Origin: Trueperaceae bacterium
GTDB taxonomy: Bacteria; Deinococcota; Deinococci; Deinococcales; Trueperaceae
DNA length: 64,000 nucleotides
Assembly (NCBI GenBank): GCA_034520945.1
Contig: JAXHNB010000005.1
Span: 512,001 to 576,000, forward strand
Reading direction: 5' to 3'
Shown: one piece after another, positions 23,661 through 62,997 of the stretch
How the letters are laid out: the number at the start of each line of letters is the position of its first letter
How positions within the stretch are numbered: position 1 is the first letter of the stretch
Made by a program: the position numbers and the translations under genes
Notes under the pieces: model-generated
Database searches by the model: none
Told to the model about the DNA's origin: nothing
What the model saw: the letters and a program-made list of their open reading frames with translations, nothing else

Positions 23661-26008
23661 GGATCCCGCACGGCTGGCTGGCGGAGCTGGTGCCGGGGTT
23701 GCCCGACGCCGACGCCTTGAGCGAGCTCCTGCCCGGGCTGGGCCTGGGGGTCGAGGCGGTGCACGAACGACCGGCGGCGCCGGCGGGCGTGGTGGTGGCG
23801 GAGGTGCGCGAGGTTTTGAAGATCGAGGGGTCCGACCACCTGCTGCGCGTACGCGCGTTCGACGGGCGCGATACGCACCAGGTGGTGTGCGGCGCGCCGA
23901 ACTGCCGGCCCGGCGTCCGCAGCGCGCTGGTGCCGCCCGGCACCGAGCTGCCGGCCGCCGGCCTGCGCGTGGAGCGCCGCACCCTGGCCGGCGTGGAGAG
24001 CGCCGGCATGCTGGCGTCGCCGCGGGAGCTGGGCCTGTTCGACCACGCCGCCGGCATCCTCACGCTGCCGCCGGACACGCCGCTCGGCCTGGACCTGCAG
24101 GAGGTCTGGCCGGCCGAGACGGTGCTGGAGTTGGAACTCACCCCCAACCGGGCGGACGCGTTCAGCCTGCTGGGCGTGGCGCGCGACCTGTGCGCCAAGC
24201 TGGGCGTGAGCCTGCGCCACCCCGCCGCCGGCGCCACGCCCGCGGACGGGGACGACGACGCCTTCGAGGTGCAGGTCGCGGACCCCGAGGGCTGTCCGCA
24301 CCTGGTGACCCGACGCATCACCGGCGTGCGGGTGGGGCCCAGTCCCGTGTGGCTGCAACGCCGCCTGGCCGCGCTGGGGCTCCGGCCCCGCAACAACGTC
24401 GTCGACGTCACCAACTACGTCACGTTCGAGCTGGGCCAACCGACGCACGCCTACGACCGCCGCGCCCTGCCGAAGGGCGTGCTGCAGGTCCGCCGCGCCG
24501 AGGCCGGCGAAGAGGTCCAGTTGCTGGATGAACGGACCTACGCGCTGGACCCGCGCGACCTGGTCATCGCCACGCCGAACGAGCACGGCGCGTCCAGCCC
24601 CGTCGGCCTGGCCGGCGTGATGGGCGGCCTGCACGACAGCGTGCGGGCCGACAGCGACGAGGTGGTGCTGGAGGCGGCGCACTTCGACCCGGTGTCGATC
24701 CGCAAGACCGCCAAGCGGCACGGCCTGCACAGCGACGCGCACTACCGCTTCGAACGCGGTGTCGACCCGGCCCTGCCCCCCGTCGCGGCGGCCCGCGCCG
24801 CCGCGCTGATCGCCGAGACCTCCGGCGGCACGGTGGTGCCCGCCCGCAGCCGGACCGGCGGCGCGCCCGCGCCGGCCGAGATCGACTTCCGCCCCTCGCG
24901 CGTGTCGTTCCTGATGGCGTTCGACGTCGAGGCGCCGTTGCAACGCCGCTACCTGGAGGCGCTCGGTTGCGAGGTGCACGAAGACGAAGCGGACGCCTGG
25001 CGGGTGCGGCCGCCCAGCTGGCGCTTCGACCTGAGCATCGAGGAGGACCTGGTCGAGGAGGTGGGGCGGCTGCACGGCTACGAGCACGTCGGGGCGACCC
25101 GGCCGGACCTGTCGTTCACGCCGCCGCACACCGACCCGACCCACCGGGCGTTGCGCGACGCGCTGGCGGCGGCCGGGCTGCAGGAGACGATCGCGTACGT
25201 GTTCAGCGGCGACGAGGAGCTGGCGCGCGCCCACGCCCCCGAGGCGCGGGTCCGGCTGTCCAACCCGCAGGGGGTCGAGCGCGCGCGGCTCCGCACCGCC
25301 CTGCACCCCGGCCTGCTGGCCGCCGCCGCCGCCAACCGCGGCGCGGACGGCCTGGCGCTGTTCGAGATCGGGCGGGTGTTCCTGGAGCCCGAGGAGGAAC
25401 GGCTCGCCGTCCTGCTGTCCGGCGCGTGGGAGCGCGGCGTGTGGCGCGAGGGCACGCGCGTGGACGTGTGGCGCCTGCGCGGCGTGCTGGAGGGGCTGGC
25501 GACGCGTTGGCGCGCCGCCCTGGAGGTGCGGCCCGCCAGGCCGGAGGAGGCGCCGATGCTGCACCCCGGCGTGGCGGGTGTGGTGTCGTGGGAGGGGCGC
25601 GAGGTCGGCATCATGGGCCGGCTCCACCCCGAAGTGGCCGCCGCGTACGAGCTGGCGGACGTCTACCTGGCGGAGCTGACCCTCCCGCTGGCGCCCGGCC
25701 CGCTGGCGATCGAGGACGTGCCCCGCCAGCCGTACGCCGAACGCGACCTGGCGATCGTGGCGCCGGCGGAGGTGCCGTACGCGCGCCTGGCCGCCCTGGT
25801 GCGGGAGCCCGCCGGCCCGCGCCTGGTGCACGCCGAACCGTTCGACGTCTACCAGGGCCCCCCGCTGGGCAGCCACGAGCGAAGCGTCGCCATCCGGCTG
25901 CGCTGGCGGCACCCCGAGCGGGCGCTGCGGGACGAAGAGGTCGACGCCTGGCTGGCGGCGGTCGCAGACGCGGTGCGGGCGGCGGGCTTCGGCATTCGCG
26001 GCTCGTAG
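23657..26008 (+). CDS. pheT: Phenylalanine-tRNA ligase beta subunit
   Basis: VVCGAPN, LTPNRAD, NNVVDVTNYV, RFERGVD, EDLVEEVGRLHGY. Confidence 0.97.
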   Translation: MRIPHGWLAELVPGLPDADALSELLPGLGLGVEAVHERPAAPAGVVVAEVREVLKIEGSDHLLRVRAFDGRDTHQVVCGAPNCRPGVRSALVPPGTELPAAGLRVERRTLAGVESAGMLASPRELGLFDHAAGILTLPPDTPLGLDLQEVWPAETVLELELTPNRADAFSLLGVARDLCAKLGVSLRHPAAGATPADGDDDAFEVQVADPEGCPHLVTRRITGVRVGPSPVWLQRRLAALGLRPRNNVVDVTNYVTFELGQPTHAYDRRALPKGVLQVRRAEAGEEVQLLDERTYALDPRDLVIATPNEHGASSPVGLAGVMGGLHDSVRADSDEVVLEAAHFDPVSIRKTAKRHGLHSDAHYRFERGVDPALPPVAAARAAALIAETSGGTVVPARSRTGGAPAPAEIDFRPSRVSFLMAFDVEAPLQRRYLEALGCEVHEDEADAWRVRPPSWRFDLSIEEDLVEEVGRLHGYEHVGATRPDLSFTPPHTDPTHRALRDALAAAGLQETIAYVFSGDEELARAHAPEARVRLSNPQGVERARLRTALHPGLLAAAAANRGADGLALFEIGRVFLEPEEERLAVLLSGAWERGVWREGTRVDVWRLRGVLEGLATRWRAALEVRPARPEEAPMLHPGVAGVVSWEGREVGIMGRLHPEVAAAYELADVYLAELTLPLAPGPLAIEDVPRQPYAERDLAIVAPAEVPYARLAALVREPAGPRLVHAEPFDVYQGPPLGSHERSVAIRLRWRHPERALRDEEVDAWLAAVADAVRAAGFGIRGS

Positions 26009-26026
26009 CGAAGGTATGCTCGCGCC

Positions 26027-26569
26027 GTGAGCTGGATCGACGGCGTGTTCGCCCTGCTTCTGGCCGGAATGACGGCCTTCGGCGCCCACCGGCGCCTCAC
26101 CGGCCTGTGGGTCGGCGTGGGCGGGGTGCTGCTGCTGAGGCCGGTGCTGGGCCTGGCGGCGGCGTCGCCGTGGGTGGGCCTGGCGGCCGCCCTCGGCGGT
26201 GGCGTGCTGCTGGGCCTGGTGGGCCGCCACCTGTTCGTGGAGGCGCGCACCGGCCGGGTGTGGCAGCGCGTGCTGGGCGGTCTCGGCGGCGCCTCGCTGG
26301 GGGCGGCGCTGGTGCTGGCCATCGCGGTGTCGCTCCCGATCCAACGCAGCCCGTTCGACCCGAACCAGCTCTACTACCCGCCCCGTGACCTTCCCCCCCT
26401 GGTGCAGGGCGCCGTGTTGCGTTCCTGGACGATGGACGTGGGTCGCGACGTGCTGCTGTTCCCGTTGCTCGACGCGCAGAACGCCGTGCCCGAGGAACGC
26501 CGGGCGCTGCTGCGGGGGCTGCACCGCTTGCTGGTGGTGGGCAGGCCGTGGCGGCAGGAGGGAGGCTGA
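26027..26569 (+). CDS. CvpA-like membrane protein
   Basis: MSWIDGVF..., four hydrophobic segments, RVLGGLGG motif; leaderless TATGCT box. Confidence 0.7.
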   Translation: MSWIDGVFALLLAGMTAFGAHRRLTGLWVGVGGVLLLRPVLGLAAASPWVGLAAALGGGVLLGLVGRHLFVEARTGRVWQRVLGGLGGASLGAALVLAIAVSLPIQRSPFDPNQLYYPPRDLPPLVQGAVLRSWTMDVGRDVLLFPLLDAQNAVPEERRALLRGLHRLLVVGRPWRQEGG

Positions 26570-26599
26570 GGGTCCCCCAAGCTAGGTAGACACGCGAGG

Positions 26600-26800
26600 A
26601 AGCGCAAGCCCGGTCCGCACGCGGACCGGTGACGAGGTGGAGGGCCCCCTGCGGTCCCGCGCCGCGGCCACCAGGCCGGTCGGCGACCCGGGGGGACAGG
26701 CGCACACCGAGAGGTGCGGCGCCGAAAACGCGAGAACGTCTGCGGGCCCCTCCCGAGATGGATCCCTCGCTCGCGTACACGCACGGATCCCTCGCGGCGA
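26600..26800 (+). ncRNA. glmS ribozyme-like RNA (atypical, interrupted core)
   Basis: AGCGCA cleavage-site motif, P1 hairpin CCGGTCCGC/GCGGACCGG, TGACGAGGTGGAGG, then after ~85 nt CGAGA..TCTGCGG..CCCTCC; directly upstream of glmS. Confidence 0.75.
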
Positions 26801-26902
26801 TGCACATCGCCGCCCCCGGCACCCGAGCGGTGCCGCCGGCCCGACCCGCCGGCCCAGCTCACCCCGAACCGAAAACGCTGCTGAACACGAAACGGAGTCC
26901 AC

Positions 26903-28720
26903 ATGTGTGGAATCGTCGGTTACGTCGGCGCGCGTGACGCGTCGCCCATCGTCCTGGACGGGCTGTCCCGCCTGGAGTATCGCGGCTACGACTCCGCAGG
27001 CATCGTCAGCTTGGACGCGGACGGCGCCATGGCGCACGTCAAGCGGGCCGGCAAGCTACGGGTCCTGGCGGACGCCATGCAGCACGCGCCGCTGCCCGGA
27101 CACCTGGCCCTCGGCCACACCCGCTGGGCCACCCACGGCCGGCCCAGCGACGTCAACGCCCATCCTCACCTCAGCGAGGACGGCCGCCTGGCGATCATCC
27201 ACAACGGCATCATCGAGAACTACGCCCCGCTGCGCGCGCGGCTGCAGGACGCCGGCCACGCCTTCGCCAGCGAGACCGACAGCGAGGTGCTGGTCCACCT
27301 GATCGAGCACCACTACCGTGGCGACCTGGCCGCCGCCGTGCGGGCGGCGCTGCGGGAGGTCGAGGGCGCGTTCGCGCTGGTGTGCGCCCACGCCGGTCAC
27401 GACGAGATCGTGGCGGCGCGCGCCACCAGCCCGCTGGTGGTCGGCCTGGGCGACGGCGAGACCTTCCTGGCCAGCGACGTGCCGGCCCTGCTGCCCTACA
27501 CCCGCCGGGTGGTGTACCTCGCCGACGGCGACGTCGCCATCGTCCGCGCCTCGGGCCTGGAACTGCAGGACGTGGACGGCGCCCCCCGGCCGGTGCGCGA
27601 GGACCGCGTCGACTGGGACGCCGAGGCGGCCGAGAAGGGCGGCTACCCGCACTTCATGCTCAAGGAGATCTTCGAGCAGCCCACCGTGCTGCAGAACACC
27701 TTCGGCGGCCGCTTCGATCCCAGCGGCAGCGACGTGAACCTGGACCTGAGCTTGGATCCCGCCGCCGTGGACCGGGTGGTGATCACCGCGTGCGGCACCG
27801 CGTCGTACGCCGGCCAGGTCGGCCGCGCGTTGATCGAGCGCTGGGCGCGCCTGCCGGTCCAGGTGGAGGTCGCCAGCGAATTTCGCTACCAGCGGCCCGT
27901 GCTGGACGCGCGCACCCTGGTGGTGGCGGTCAGCCAGTCGGGCGAGACCATCGACACCCTCGGCGCGGTGCGACGCGCGCGCGAGGCGGGCGCGCGGACG
28001 CTGGCCGTCCTGAACGTGAAGGGCTCGTCCCTGGCGCGGGAGGTGGACGACGTGCTGTACGTGCACGCCGGGCCGGAGATCGGCGTGGCCAGCACCAAGG
28101 CGTACCTGGCGATGATCGCGGCGTTCGCGCTGCTGGCGCTGCGCCTGGGGCGGGCGCGCGGCACGCTCGGGGAGGACGAGGCCCGCGCGCTGATCGAGGA
28201 GCTGCGGCGCATGCCGGGCCTGGCGCAGGAGACCCTCGAGCGGAGGGACGCGGTCGACGCCGTCGCGGCCGGCCTCACCGGCGCGCGGGACGCCCTGTTC
28301 CTGGGGCGCGGCGTGCACGTCGCCACCGCCTTCGAGGGCGCCCTGAAGCTGAAGGAGATCAGCTACCTGCACGCCGAGGCGTACCCGACCGGCGAGATGA
28401 AGCACGGCCCCATCGCCCTGATCGACGAGCACATGCCGGTGATCGTGATCGCCACCGCCGGCGACACCTACGCCAAGACGGTGTCCAACATGCAGGAGGT
28501 GCGCGCGCGGGACGGGCGGCTGATCGCCATCGCCAGCGACGGCGACGATGACATCGCCCAGCAGGCCGACCAGGTGTTGTACGTGCCGCGCACCTCGGAG
28601 CTGCTCTCTGCGCTCCTGGTGGCGATCCCGCTGCAGCTGTTGGCGTACCAGGTGGCGGTGCGGTTGGGCCGCGACGTGGACCAGCCCCGCAACCTGGCGA
28701 AGAGCGTCACCGTGGAGTGA
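26903..28720 (+). CDS. glmS: Glutamine-fructose-6-phosphate aminotransferase
   Basis: MCGIVGY, LEYRGYDSAG, GHTRWATHG, PRNLAKSVTVE. Confidence 0.98.
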   Translation: MCGIVGYVGARDASPIVLDGLSRLEYRGYDSAGIVSLDADGAMAHVKRAGKLRVLADAMQHAPLPGHLALGHTRWATHGRPSDVNAHPHLSEDGRLAIIHNGIIENYAPLRARLQDAGHAFASETDSEVLVHLIEHHYRGDLAAAVRAALREVEGAFALVCAHAGHDEIVAARATSPLVVGLGDGETFLASDVPALLPYTRRVVYLADGDVAIVRASGLELQDVDGAPRPVREDRVDWDAEAAEKGGYPHFMLKEIFEQPTVLQNTFGGRFDPSGSDVNLDLSLDPAAVDRVVITACGTASYAGQVGRALIERWARLPVQVEVASEFRYQRPVLDARTLVVAVSQSGETIDTLGAVRRAREAGARTLAVLNVKGSSLAREVDDVLYVHAGPEIGVASTKAYLAMIAAFALLALRLGRARGTLGEDEARALIEELRRMPGLAQETLERRDAVDAVAAGLTGARDALFLGRGVHVATAFEGALKLKEISYLHAEAYPTGEMKHGPIALIDEHMPVIVIATAGDTYAKTVSNMQEVRARDGRLIAIASDGDDDIAQQADQVLYVPRTSELLSALLVAIPLQLLAYQVAVRLGRDVDQPRNLAKSVTVE

Positions 28721-54033: not shown

Positions 54034-56190
54034 CGCCGCCGCGGTGCCTGGGCGGGTGGGCCCGGCGGGTGGCGTGCATGGGTGTCCTCGCGCTGGGGCT
54101 CGCGGTCGCGCAAGAGCAGACGTCGCTTCTGCCCGCCCAGATCCGCGCCGGCGTGCCGGAGGCGGAGCTGCCGGTCGGCGCGCCGTGCCAGGTGCCCGGC
54201 GCCGAGTTGGAGATCGAGGGGGTCGGACGGGCGGTGTACGACCGGATCGAGGTGGACAGCGCCGCCGGCACGGCGCACCTCTCGGGCGGCGTGTGCATCG
54301 AGGCGCCCGGCATGGACCTGGTGCTGCGGGTGGCGGAGATCGACCTGCGCGACATGAACGCCGGAGACGGCGCGCCGCCGCGCATCGAGGCGCGCGAGGT
54401 GCAGCTGGACGTCTCCGGCTGGCGGCTGCGGGTGGCGCGCCTGGACGGGCCGATCGATGCGCTCCGCGCCGAGGAGGTGTTCCTGTTCGCCCCCGGCGCG
54501 GCCGGCGCCGCCGCCACGGTCGAGCTGGAGGGGGAGCGGGCCACCCTGTCGCAGGTGGCGCTGAATACCACGTACTACCGCATCACCGCCCGGCAGGCGG
54601 TGCTGGACGGCGAGGTGCTGACCCTGTCGGATGCGCGCGGCACCAGTTGCAGCTGCGAGGTGCCGCGCTACCACCTGAGCGGCCGCCGGGTGCGGGTCGC
54701 GCATCGGCGGGGGCGGCGCCGAGATCGACGCGCCGGTGGTGGAGGTGCTGGGCGTGCGGGTCCCGCTGGGGGAGACCCTCACGCTCGGACCCGAAGGGCC
54801 GGACCTGGACGTGCCGTTCGTGCTGGGTCCGCGCGAGGACCTGGGCACCGTGGCGGCGTACGCGCCGCGCGGGCGGGACGGCGTGCGCGTAGAGCTGGGC
54901 GGCACGACGTCGCTGACGCCCGAACCGCTGGCCACCCTCCGCGCCGAGGCGGGCGGGACGCGCATTGCGCTGGAGGCCGACCCGCGCGGCCTGTGGCTGC
55001 AGGGCCGCGCGCGGCACCCGCTGGGCGGCGGGGCGTGGCTCGACGCCTTCAGCGACACCCGCCTGCGCGACGGCGATGAGCGGCGCCTGCGCGCCGGCCT
55101 GACGAGCGGCATCGACCCCGAAACCCGCCTCCCGCTGGGCACGGGCGGCGAGCTGCGCGTCCAAGGGGCGTTGCGGGCCGGCGCCGAGATCGCCGCCGAG
55201 CCCGACCGGGACGTGGCCGGCCCGCGCCTACCGTTCCGGGCCGAGGCCCGCCTGCGCACGCCGCTCACCTCGTGGGCGCGGGCGGACCTGCGCCTCACCG
55301 GCACCGCCACCGCCTACCCCGGCATGACCCCGGGCGGGCGGGCCGCGCTGGACGTTGCGCCGTCGCTGCGGTTGGAGGGGCCGCTCGGGCCGGCGTCCGG
55401 CCGGCTGGTGCTGGGCGCACGGCGGCGCGTCACGATCGGGGATGGGCCGTTCGAATTCGACGACGTATCCGCCCGGGCGCGCCTCCGGGCCGACGGGCGG
55501 TTGCGTGCCGGGCCGCTGACGCTGCAGGCCCGCGGGGTGCGCCGCCTGGCGCCGGAGACGCCCGGTTGGGAGGCGCTGTCCGGCCGCGCGACGGCCGAGC
55601 TGGCGCTGGGGGCGGACTGGACGCTGCGGCCCGCACTGCGGGCGGAACTCGCCGGCCTGGCCGGTGGGCCAAGCGGCGAGGACTGGCTGCAGGCCGGCGC
55701 CACGGCGGAGGGGCCGATCGCGGGGCACGCCTCGAGCTTCGGGCTGCAGGTCCGCAGCGGCGCGCGGGACCTGACCCTGCGGCGGGTGCGCGCCTCCGCC
55801 GCGACGGGGTTCGAAGTGTCGATGCCCGGCGGGTCGGTCGTGCTGGAGCCGTCGTTGAGCGTGGACGTCGCGCCGCTGCTGCGCGGCGCCGGCGGCCCGG
55901 CCCTGCACGCGCACGGCCTGCGCGTCACCGTGAACGACTGCTGCGGCGGGTGGATGCTGGGCTACGAACGTGAGGACGGCGAAACCCGCCTGGCGTTCGG
56001 CGTGACCCTGCCGCCGCTGCAGCTGGACCGGCCGCCCCAACCCTCCCTGCCCACCATCCCGCCGCTGCCGTCGTTGGAGCCCTCGCCGGACCCCTCCCCG
56101 CAACCTGGCGACTCGGGCGCGGCGCCCGGCGAGCCCGGGCCCGCCCTCGCCGGGGCCTCGGGTCGGGCGGAAGGTCGTGACGCCCGATGA
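54030..56190 (+). CDS. LptD-like outer-membrane protein (frameshift at ~54700)
   Basis: Jellyroll-like N-terminus, TSCSCEVPRYHL motif, VLGVRVP, beta-barrel-like C-terminus with VNDCC. Confidence 0.6.
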
Positions 56191-62591: not shown

Positions 62592-62997
62592 TGGTCGTGC
62601 TGGCGCTTTGGGCACAGGTAAGGCCCCGCCGGAGACCAACGGCACCTGACGATCACCCCTTATGGCTGCTCCTTCCGGCCTGACCAGGTTCGGGGGTCGC
62701 CACCGCGTTGGGCCAGCGGGACCGGCGAGAGCCTATCACGGGAGGCAGGCGCACCGGAGGCGCGGCTGGACATGGGCTCGCCGCGGCGTGTGACGGGGCT
62801 GCGCCGGCATGGACTGGGCGATGAAGGGCAATTGAGGGTCGCCGCGCCACTTGTGGCGAATCTGTAAGAGTCCTGTGAGAATTCGGGAGTAGAGTCATAG
62901 GTGAACGCAGGCAAAGGGCTTGTGTTCGAACTTCAAAAGGGAACGCCCGACGATCATTCATCCCTACTCGGACGTTCCAGATCGAAAGGAGCGCATC

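Follow-up and report, generated by a model that had tools for sequence, protein, structure and literature searches.

Does the leader of glmS in this Trueperaceae genome hold a working ribozyme, and if so, of what kind? A first-pass annotation of the 64,000-nucleotide stretch of DNA analysed here (the window) had read this leader as a glmS ribozyme with an interrupted or rearranged core, and had proposed a permuted ribozyme, one gated by an inserted domain, or a decayed one. Our analysis suggests that positions 26592 to 26790 are probably a functional, lineage-specific structural variant of the glmS ribozyme-riboswitch, in which self-cleavage would be retained. The evidence consists of sequence conservation, helix covariation and the position upstream of glmS. 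The features used in the argument are listed below, each with its strand.

26027-26569, plus strand: upstream open reading frame of 180 amino acids, ending 22 nt before P0
26592-26790, plus strand: glmS-type ribozyme variant, directly 5' of glmS, all core blocks present in canonical order
26592-26598, plus strand: P0 5' strand ACGCGAG, ending 3 nt before the cleavage site and pairing with 26770-26776
26601-26602, plus strand: predicted cleavage site A26601/G26602, from its correspondence to A(-1)/G1 in canonical ribozymes (Rfam consensus; available part of PMC7125110)
26601-26606, plus strand: AGCGCA, read from the sequence
26603-26606, plus strand: P2.2 5' strand CGCA, complementary to UGCG at 26741-26744, then G26745; near-invariant in the family
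26610-26629, plus strand: P1 hairpin of 8 bp (26610-26617 with 26622-26629), loop CACG, supported by covariation
26630-26643, plus strand: UGACGAGGUGGAGG, read from the sequence
26631-26637, plus strand: core strand GACGAGG (active site, P2.1 5' strand), conserved in the family
26639-26644, plus strand: P2 5' strand GGAGGG, pairing with CCCUCC at 26748-26753
26646-26694, plus strand: stem A of the insert, base 26646-26651 with 26689-26694; 6 of 6 basal pairs change on both sides (MAFFT and model-fitted alignments)
26694-26698, plus strand: GGACA, following the stem A domain
26695-26698, plus strand: junction strand GACA, family consensus GAUA, conserved in the family
26699-26723, plus strand: hairpin B of the insert, GAGA loop at 26709-26712; 4 of 4 basal pairs change on both sides (both alignments)
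26724-26733, plus strand: GAAAACGCGA, conserved junction plus P2.1 3' strand; GAAA, then A or G, then YGCGA in 67 of 80 leaders
26731-26753, plus strand: second core half, read from the sequence
26740-26753, plus strand: CUGCGG (P2.2 3' strand), GC and CCCUCC (P2 3' strand), supported by 16-mer conservation
26754-26769, plus strand: P3 hairpin of 4 bp; 4 of 4 pairs change on both sides (both alignments)
26760-26765, plus strand: P3.1 5' strand GGAUCC within the P3 loop, complementary to 26785-26790
26760-26770 and 26785-26795, plus strand: two copies of GGATCCCTCGC, read from the sequence
26770-26776, plus strand: P0 3' strand CUCGCGU, directly after P3, pairing with 26592-26598
26785-26790, plus strand: P3.1 3' strand GGAUCC, complementary to the P3 loop
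26903-28720, plus strand: glmS coding sequence (NF001484, 818.6 bits; TIGR01135, 789.7 bits, cut-off 418)

The element is located in the glmS 5' leader, with 150 nt from the P2 3' strand to the glmS start. No Pfam or NCBIfam family was matched by the open reading frame upstream. Comparison of DNA from relatives, including some genomes that lack the ribozyme, revealed similar upstream sequence with a similar end just before the leader. A scan of 25900-27000 found neither a sigma-70-like promoter nor an intrinsic terminator, a result that is uninformative either way in such G+C-rich DNA; no promoter-like site was found by scan between the upstream reading frame and the ribozyme.

The standard Rfam model, RF00234, gave no match at its gathering score (37 bits) in the window, none in the whole 3.47-Mb genome and none in 20 of 20 loci of the window's family (f1). 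A canonical alignment without a gap, which the first-pass annotation had named as evidence against its reading, is not returned by this model for 26500-26950, which has no match even at E up to 10. When 101 genomes of the class were surveyed with RF00234 at E up to 1, the model matched 53 of 54 genomes of the Deinococcus control type (f2), three of four of the window's family (15.8-19.5 bits against the cut-off of 37), five of 37 of family f3, all from genus g8, none of four of family f4 and the single genome of family f5; the cut-off was exceeded by 26 of the 101 sampled genomes. The sole Rfam family above threshold within the window was the bacterial small SRP RNA (62623-62719, minus strand, 58.4 bits, gathering score 40).

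Analysis of the core revealed that the blocks of a glmS ribozyme are present in order upstream of glmS, around a large structured insert in the P2 loop, which bears out this part of the first-pass annotation; all of the elements it had named (AGCGCA, P1, the 5' half, the CCCCCUG/CGGGGGG domain at 26645-26651 with 26689-26695 and the GAGA hairpin) were located. Among the 75 parsed leaders of the family AGCGCAAG is found in all 75 and GUCUGCGG in 71, while GUCAGCGG occurs in four leaders without a compensating change at position 5. The core strand is GACGAGG in 70 parsed leaders and CACGAGG in five. Within it lie the residues that correspond to A27 and C28. The P2.1 3' strand, which contains CGA (26729-26733), lies inside the P2 loop and is conserved in the family. 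Position 43 is G, as in Deinococcus, and not U, so P2.1 consists of two standard pairs plus A/G. The earlier suggestion that UGCG compensates for the CGCA change is right as to complementarity; the change is not peculiar to the RNA in the window, since canonical ribozymes of the Deinococcus type share it.

The construct whose cleavage was measured by Andreasson et al. 2020 is a 66-nt core of the Thermoanaerobacter tengcongensis ribozyme that comprises P1, P2, P2.1 and P2.2 (PMC7125110, available part). Single mutants of G1, C2, G3, A27, C28, G56 and G57 in this core do not cleave, and residues 43-45 line the cofactor pocket (available part of PMC7125110). Equivalents of all these residues are present in the window and are near-invariant in the family.

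Covariation says little about P2, P2.1 and P2.2, as these three helices hardly vary. In P2, 99.6% of cells pair, and two leaders have AGAGGG with CCCUCU, a change from G-C to A-U; the pairs of P2.2 barely vary and their pairing is read from complementarity. The remaining helices are more informative. Covariation was first tested on 28 leaders aligned with MAFFT and without fitting to structure, over six nested helices, 32 pairs and 896 cells. In this alignment 93.8% of the cells pair, against 37-51% with the partner slid by one to three columns, 22 of the 32 pairs change on both sides, and none of 500 shuffles reaches any of the five measures. In P1, 94% of cells pair and both partners change in four of six basal pairs; P2 never varies in this set and shows none of six. 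The length of P1 across the family is 16-155 nt.

A covariance model (R1) of 144 positions, from GACGAGG to P3.1, was built from 29 leaders. It scores all 80 distinct leaders of the family (44.6-121 bits), and the window with 91.5 bits (26628-26795), a score that holds by construction since the window is in the seed. None of six loci of the family without the element and neither of two Deinococcus loci scored with R1 at E up to 0.001. In the R1 alignment of 83 rows, which leans towards the structure, 96.6% of cells pair against 39-63% when slid. A weak R1 match elsewhere in the window (54738-54808, plus strand, 12.8 bits, E 0.053) is most likely chance. The free energy of the window's sequence is unexceptional for its composition (z -1.81). 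Covariation across Trueperaceae leaders, which had been proposed as a check, thus supports P1, stem A, hairpin B, P3 and P3.1, and in addition a helix P0.

Where canonical ribozymes have a linker of 4 nt, from the P2 5' strand to the P2.1 3' strand, the P2 loop of this RNA accommodates a structured insert of about 86 nt. Stem A is variable in its distal part, which includes GGCGAC (26682-26687); hairpin B also differs greatly in length between leaders. Stem A, junction and hairpin B together occupy 31-218 nt across leaders. The two stems range from 3 bp to more than 100 nt, in contrast to the junction strands GAUA and GAAAR, which are fixed. The first of these strands reads GAUA, GAUAA or GAUAC in 65 of the 80 leaders and GACA in seven. 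An optional third hairpin occurs in the loop between P2.1 and P2.2, where 48 of the 75 parsed leaders have a segment of 20-86 nt and the other 27, the window among them, one of 3-6 nt. Contigs of run X5, from a related organism, carry 69 other letters in place of the window's 88 (26649-26738) between conserved blocks; this reflects natural variation in insert length within one habitat.

The conservation of the two junction strands, while both stems vary freely, is also what would be expected if the A/B junction acted as an additional sensor, of a ligand or of a protein, and thereby controlled the formation of P2.1 and P2.2. The strands moreover adjoin the P2.1 3' strand, which lines the canonical cofactor pocket (PMC7125110, available part). 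The conserved part amounts to just about 9 nt, however, and the insert matches no Rfam family at E up to 10. Variable stems with fixed junction strands fit scaffold helices better than a second aptamer, and we consider a ribozyme gated in this way unlikely.

Downstream of the core, P3 and P3.1 are present in reduced form. In 71 of the 80 leaders at least five contiguous nucleotides of the P3 loop are complementary to a downstream strand; shuffling the downstream sequence lowers the share to 17%. The pseudoknot so formed comprises 5-6 bp, and its sequence changes from leader to leader, with GGAUCC/GGAUCC in the window, and CGACCC/GGGUCG, GAACCC/GGGUUC, CACCCC/GGGGUG or CGGCCC/GGGCCG elsewhere. 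Four leaders of genus g5 in the family (L108-L111) have a P3 of CAUC/GAUG or CGUC/GAUG with a UUUU loop; P3.1 cannot form in these, and the remaining ribozyme is intact. In the window just 15 nt (26770-26784) separate P3 from the P3.1 3' strand. The first-pass annotation had found no P4 downstream, and this observation extends to the family: neither of two P4 internal-loop signatures occurs in any of 76 distinct leaders, while both sets of relatives compared carry them (13 of 13 Deinococcus-type leaders and five of five from f3-g8).

It had also described the 3' flank as merely simple hairpins and a duplicate of GGATCCCTCGC. The duplicate is real, and its GGATCC half is explained by the P3.1 pseudoknot that the two copies form. 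The other half of the repeat is CUCGCG, whose first copy follows directly after P3 and is complementary to the 5' flank, with which it pairs as P0. Further hairpins are seen 3' of P3.1, at 26798-26813 and 26819-26835 in the window's genus. In that region, 10-25 nt after the P3.1 3' strand, many other genera (for example L016, L017, L023, L031 and L033) have another small hairpin, whose stem covaries (CGGG/CCCG, UGGG/CCCA) and whose loop is rich in C.

Canonical glmS ribozymes require just one nucleotide upstream of the cleavage site. The pairing of the 5' flank was analysed in 80 leaders in a fixed register, with positions -9 to -4 as the 5' strand and the six nucleotides after P3 as the 3' strand; the end of P3 was taken from the alignment to R1, which is blind to the 5' flank. 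In this register pairing is seen in 402 of 480 cells (83.8%), compared with 16-43% for slid strands, and exchange of partners among sequences gave at most 371 cells in 500 trials. Position -8 is represented by UA in 28 leaders, GC in 16, AU in 11 and CG in four. The inner four pairs are near-fixed as CGAG/CUCG, and the rare changes in this part are compensated (UUGAG with CUCAA, UUGGG with CCCAA). In the MAFFT alignment both partners change in four of the six P0 pairs. GACGAGG also contains a CGAG, but the covariation of the flanking positions agrees with the 5' flank as the partner and not with this one.

A candidate second P0 segment, GGAC at -13 to -10 with GUCC before P3.1, was seen in about 30 of 80 leaders and stayed within the range of partner shuffles, with 54 of 80 against a mean of 47 (range 39-57). 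The window also contains a second CUCGCG after the P3.1 3' strand (26791-26796), an alternative partner for the P0 5' strand. The minimum-free-energy fold, which recovers P1, A and B, pairs the 5' flank with this second copy. It is absent in four leaders of the same genus that were compared (L014, L103, L104 and L107) and is probably there by chance.

The same architecture was found in 80 distinct leaders of the family (public records titled Trueperaceae) from at least 30 genera. The shared plan begins with a 5' flank ending in CGAG, 2-3 nt, A/GCGCAAG with the slash at the cleavage site, P1, GACGAGG, GGAGGG and one C. It continues with stem A, GAUA, hairpin B, GAAAR-YGCGA and the optional third hairpin, and ends with AAGU-CUGCGG-GC-CCCUCC, a 4-bp P3, CUCG, a short linker and a strand that can pair with the P3 loop. 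When 61 genomes of the family were searched by blastn with 26560-27100, two leader blocks proved conserved in the same order with variable spacing: the 5' half of the core, and its 3' half together with the sequence beyond. A 16-mer from 26738, covering the P2.2 and P2 3' strands, occurs exactly in 87 of 128 genomes of the family (among them one unpublished genome, G130) and with at most one mismatch in 97 of 128. It is found in 12 of 18 genomes of genus g27. For G217 and G222, two exact copies are located on different contigs of one genome, which could be two glmS loci or mixed bins.

Scanning one genome each of 185,579 species with a 20-mer gave 67 places, of which 65 have AGCGCAAG and the block of GACGAGG and P2 upstream and one is cut by a contig end. 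A match in Streptomyces, without the 5' half upstream, was rejected as a chance match. Of the 67 places, 61 have a start motif of glmS in their flank. By title, 38 places belong to Trueperaceae or Truepera, seven to a higher taxon of the Deinococcus group and 21 to 'uncultured bacterium'. The family assumed in the first-pass annotation, Trueperaceae, agrees with this.

This conservation bears on the proposal of a decayed relic, that is, a core broken by insertion and loss of P4 in a leader that no longer cleaves. Such a relic would agree with the missing Rfam match and the absence of P4/P4.1. It would also agree with the loss of the ribozyme before glmS in some genomes of the family (L020, L026, L030, L034, L039 and L040) and with one truncated remnant. 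Against it, the core blocks are near-invariant and the helices covary with compensatory changes throughout the 80 leaders, and the junction strands of the insert are conserved as well. The one true remnant, in L020, looks quite different: only the first third is left, immediately ahead of the start codon, and it consists of the cleavage-site motif, a P1 and the core strand in mutated form (GACAAGG). Decay is therefore a very unlikely account of the element in the window.

Comparison with other glmS ribozymes places this variant more precisely. Like the canonical RF00234 type of Bacillus and Thermoanaerobacter, it precedes glmS and has the cleavage motif A/GCGC, P1, GACGAGG, a P2 enclosing the 3' strands of P2.1 and P2.2, and a P3 hairpin whose loop forms P3.1. 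Unlike that type, it has A-U instead of C-G at positions 5/53, two hairpins (about 80 nt) for the linker after the P2 5' strand, a P3 of 4 bp, no P4/P4.1 and an added P0, and it obtains no score from the Rfam model. With the Deinococcus type, from the same order, it shares AGCGCAAG with CUGCGG, and GACGAGGUG followed by R. The Deinococcus type differs in the short linker without insert, AUG instead of GC before the P2 3' strand, a longer P3, and P4/P4.1 in 13 of 13 leaders.

The 13 Deinococcus-type leaders (L001-L012 and L123) have an invariant GGG just before the cleavage site and an invariant CCC just after P3. The pair flanking these is C-G in three of the 13 leaders (clear in two, less so in L008) and U-A in one. 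Judging from these few sequences, GGG/CCC may be a counterpart of P0 of 3-4 bp.

The closest resemblance in the insert was found in the same class, in five loci of f3-g8 (L125-L129) and one of f5 (L124), which have stem A, (GA)UAA, hairpin B and GAAAR-NN-CGA. At the place of GAAAACGCGA the f3-g8 relatives have GAAAGAUCGA or GAAACAUCGA. The leaders of both groups differ from the window in AUGCC before the P2 3' strand, a P3 of 6 bp and retention of P4/P4.1. They score 16-29 bits with RF00234, which aligns their P4/P4.1, and hence go unannotated; R1 gives 26-32 bits on three of them. GCGAG stands before the cleavage site in f3-g8, and CUCGC right after P3 in two of the five loci (L126 and L127), where the sequence suggests that P0 may exist.

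These relatives decide against a permuted ribozyme, in which P4/P4.1 would have moved from the 3' end into the P2 loop. The proposal had likened GGCGAC and GGACA to P4, which is absent downstream, and the order GAUA, hairpin, GAAAG does resemble the internal loop of Deinococcus P4 (GAUAA, a hairpin with GCGA loop, AUAAGG). The f3-g8 and f5 leaders, however, carry the insert together with a normally placed P4/P4.1, so the insert is older than the window's family and is not a transposed P4. Stem A is moreover a closed hairpin and not one strand of a P4 helix, and the GGCGAC hairpin belongs to its variable distal part. Permutation is barely credible on these grounds. That the insert of about 86 nt is a chimeric join in an apparently metagenome-assembled genome, whose best-matching runs are themselves metagenomes, is practically negligible as an explanation, since contigs from two other studies run colinear across it (X3, record 9, 26450-26827, 16 differences and one gap; X5, record 18, 26450-26767, 19 differences and one gap) and homologous inserts occur in 80 leaders of other genomes.

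The loss of P4 in a ribozyme that would still be functional has a laboratory parallel. In the T. tengcongensis minimal core of 66 nt, P1, P2, P2.1 and P2.2 alone cleave without P3-P4 (PMC7125110, available part), so a natural form without P4 can be active. That core differs from the element in the window in being a laboratory truncation with no insert and no P0. According to the available part of Yu et al. 2024 (PMC11602151), the importance of the peripheral IL4 loop lies in preserving the double pseudoknot, and mismatches in P4 and P4.1 are tolerated.

Taken as a functional variant, the element would keep the catalytic double-pseudoknot core (the A/G site, P1, GACGAGG, P2, P2.1 and P2.2), and its P2 linker would be replaced by hairpins A and B, joined by the conserved purine-rich strands GAUA and GAAAR. 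P3/P3.1 would be reduced to the 4-bp hairpin and the pseudoknot of 5-6 bp, with P4/P4.1 absent, and the strand connecting P3 and P3.1 would pair with the 5' flank just upstream of the scissile bond as P0. P0 and the A/B junction may scaffold the fragile core instead of P4/P4.1. When GlcN6P is abundant, the RNA would cleave itself between A26601 and G26602, and the glmS message would thereby be destabilised in a negative feedback, as in Bacillus. RNase J1 takes part in the decay of cleaved glmS mRNA in Bacillus. An RNase J gene is present in the genome (531 bits) and is consistent with this decay route. Rapid degradation of the mRNA after scission is cited in the available part of McCown et al. 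2017 (PMC5473149).

As judged from its sequence, the element shares the core and, given the predicted cleavage, the working of the glmS ribozyme, and falls outside RF00234 as modelled on score and on P4/P4.1. A full-text search, with the 2011 survey by McCown, Roth and Breaker and a 2012 chapter lying outside it, found no paper that links glmS ribozymes with Truepera, Meiothermus or Deinococcota. Among papers found by full-text search to join the glmS ribozyme with Deinococcus-Thermus, none appears to deal with structure, and the available part of Barrick and Breaker 2007 (PMC2258182) makes no mention of such variants. It is possible that the insert has already been described; an earlier description of P0 and of the loss of P4 is less likely, but possible.

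Cofactor-dependent RNA catalysis and the peripheral support of a fragile catalytic core are both studied with the glmS ribozyme as a model. A natural and widely conserved form with a swapped periphery (no P4/P4.1, a junction in the P2 loop and a clamp between 5' and 3' sides) offers a ready comparison for studies of folding and fitness. The results also expose a blind spot of annotation, as the standard model shows no glmS ribozyme in most genomes of one family and some of a second, though it is present. More tentatively, and with rather less than even confidence, we propose that Trueperaceae have a second architectural class of glmS ribozyme, in which P0 and the P2-loop junction took over the scaffolding role of P4/P4.1. 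If so, P0 would hold the 5' cleavage product on the ribozyme, and because of this its release or re-ligation could shape the kinetics of regulation, unlike in the canonical ribozyme. Should glmS be co-transcribed with the gene that ends at 26569, P0 might in addition shield the fold from the message upstream of it.
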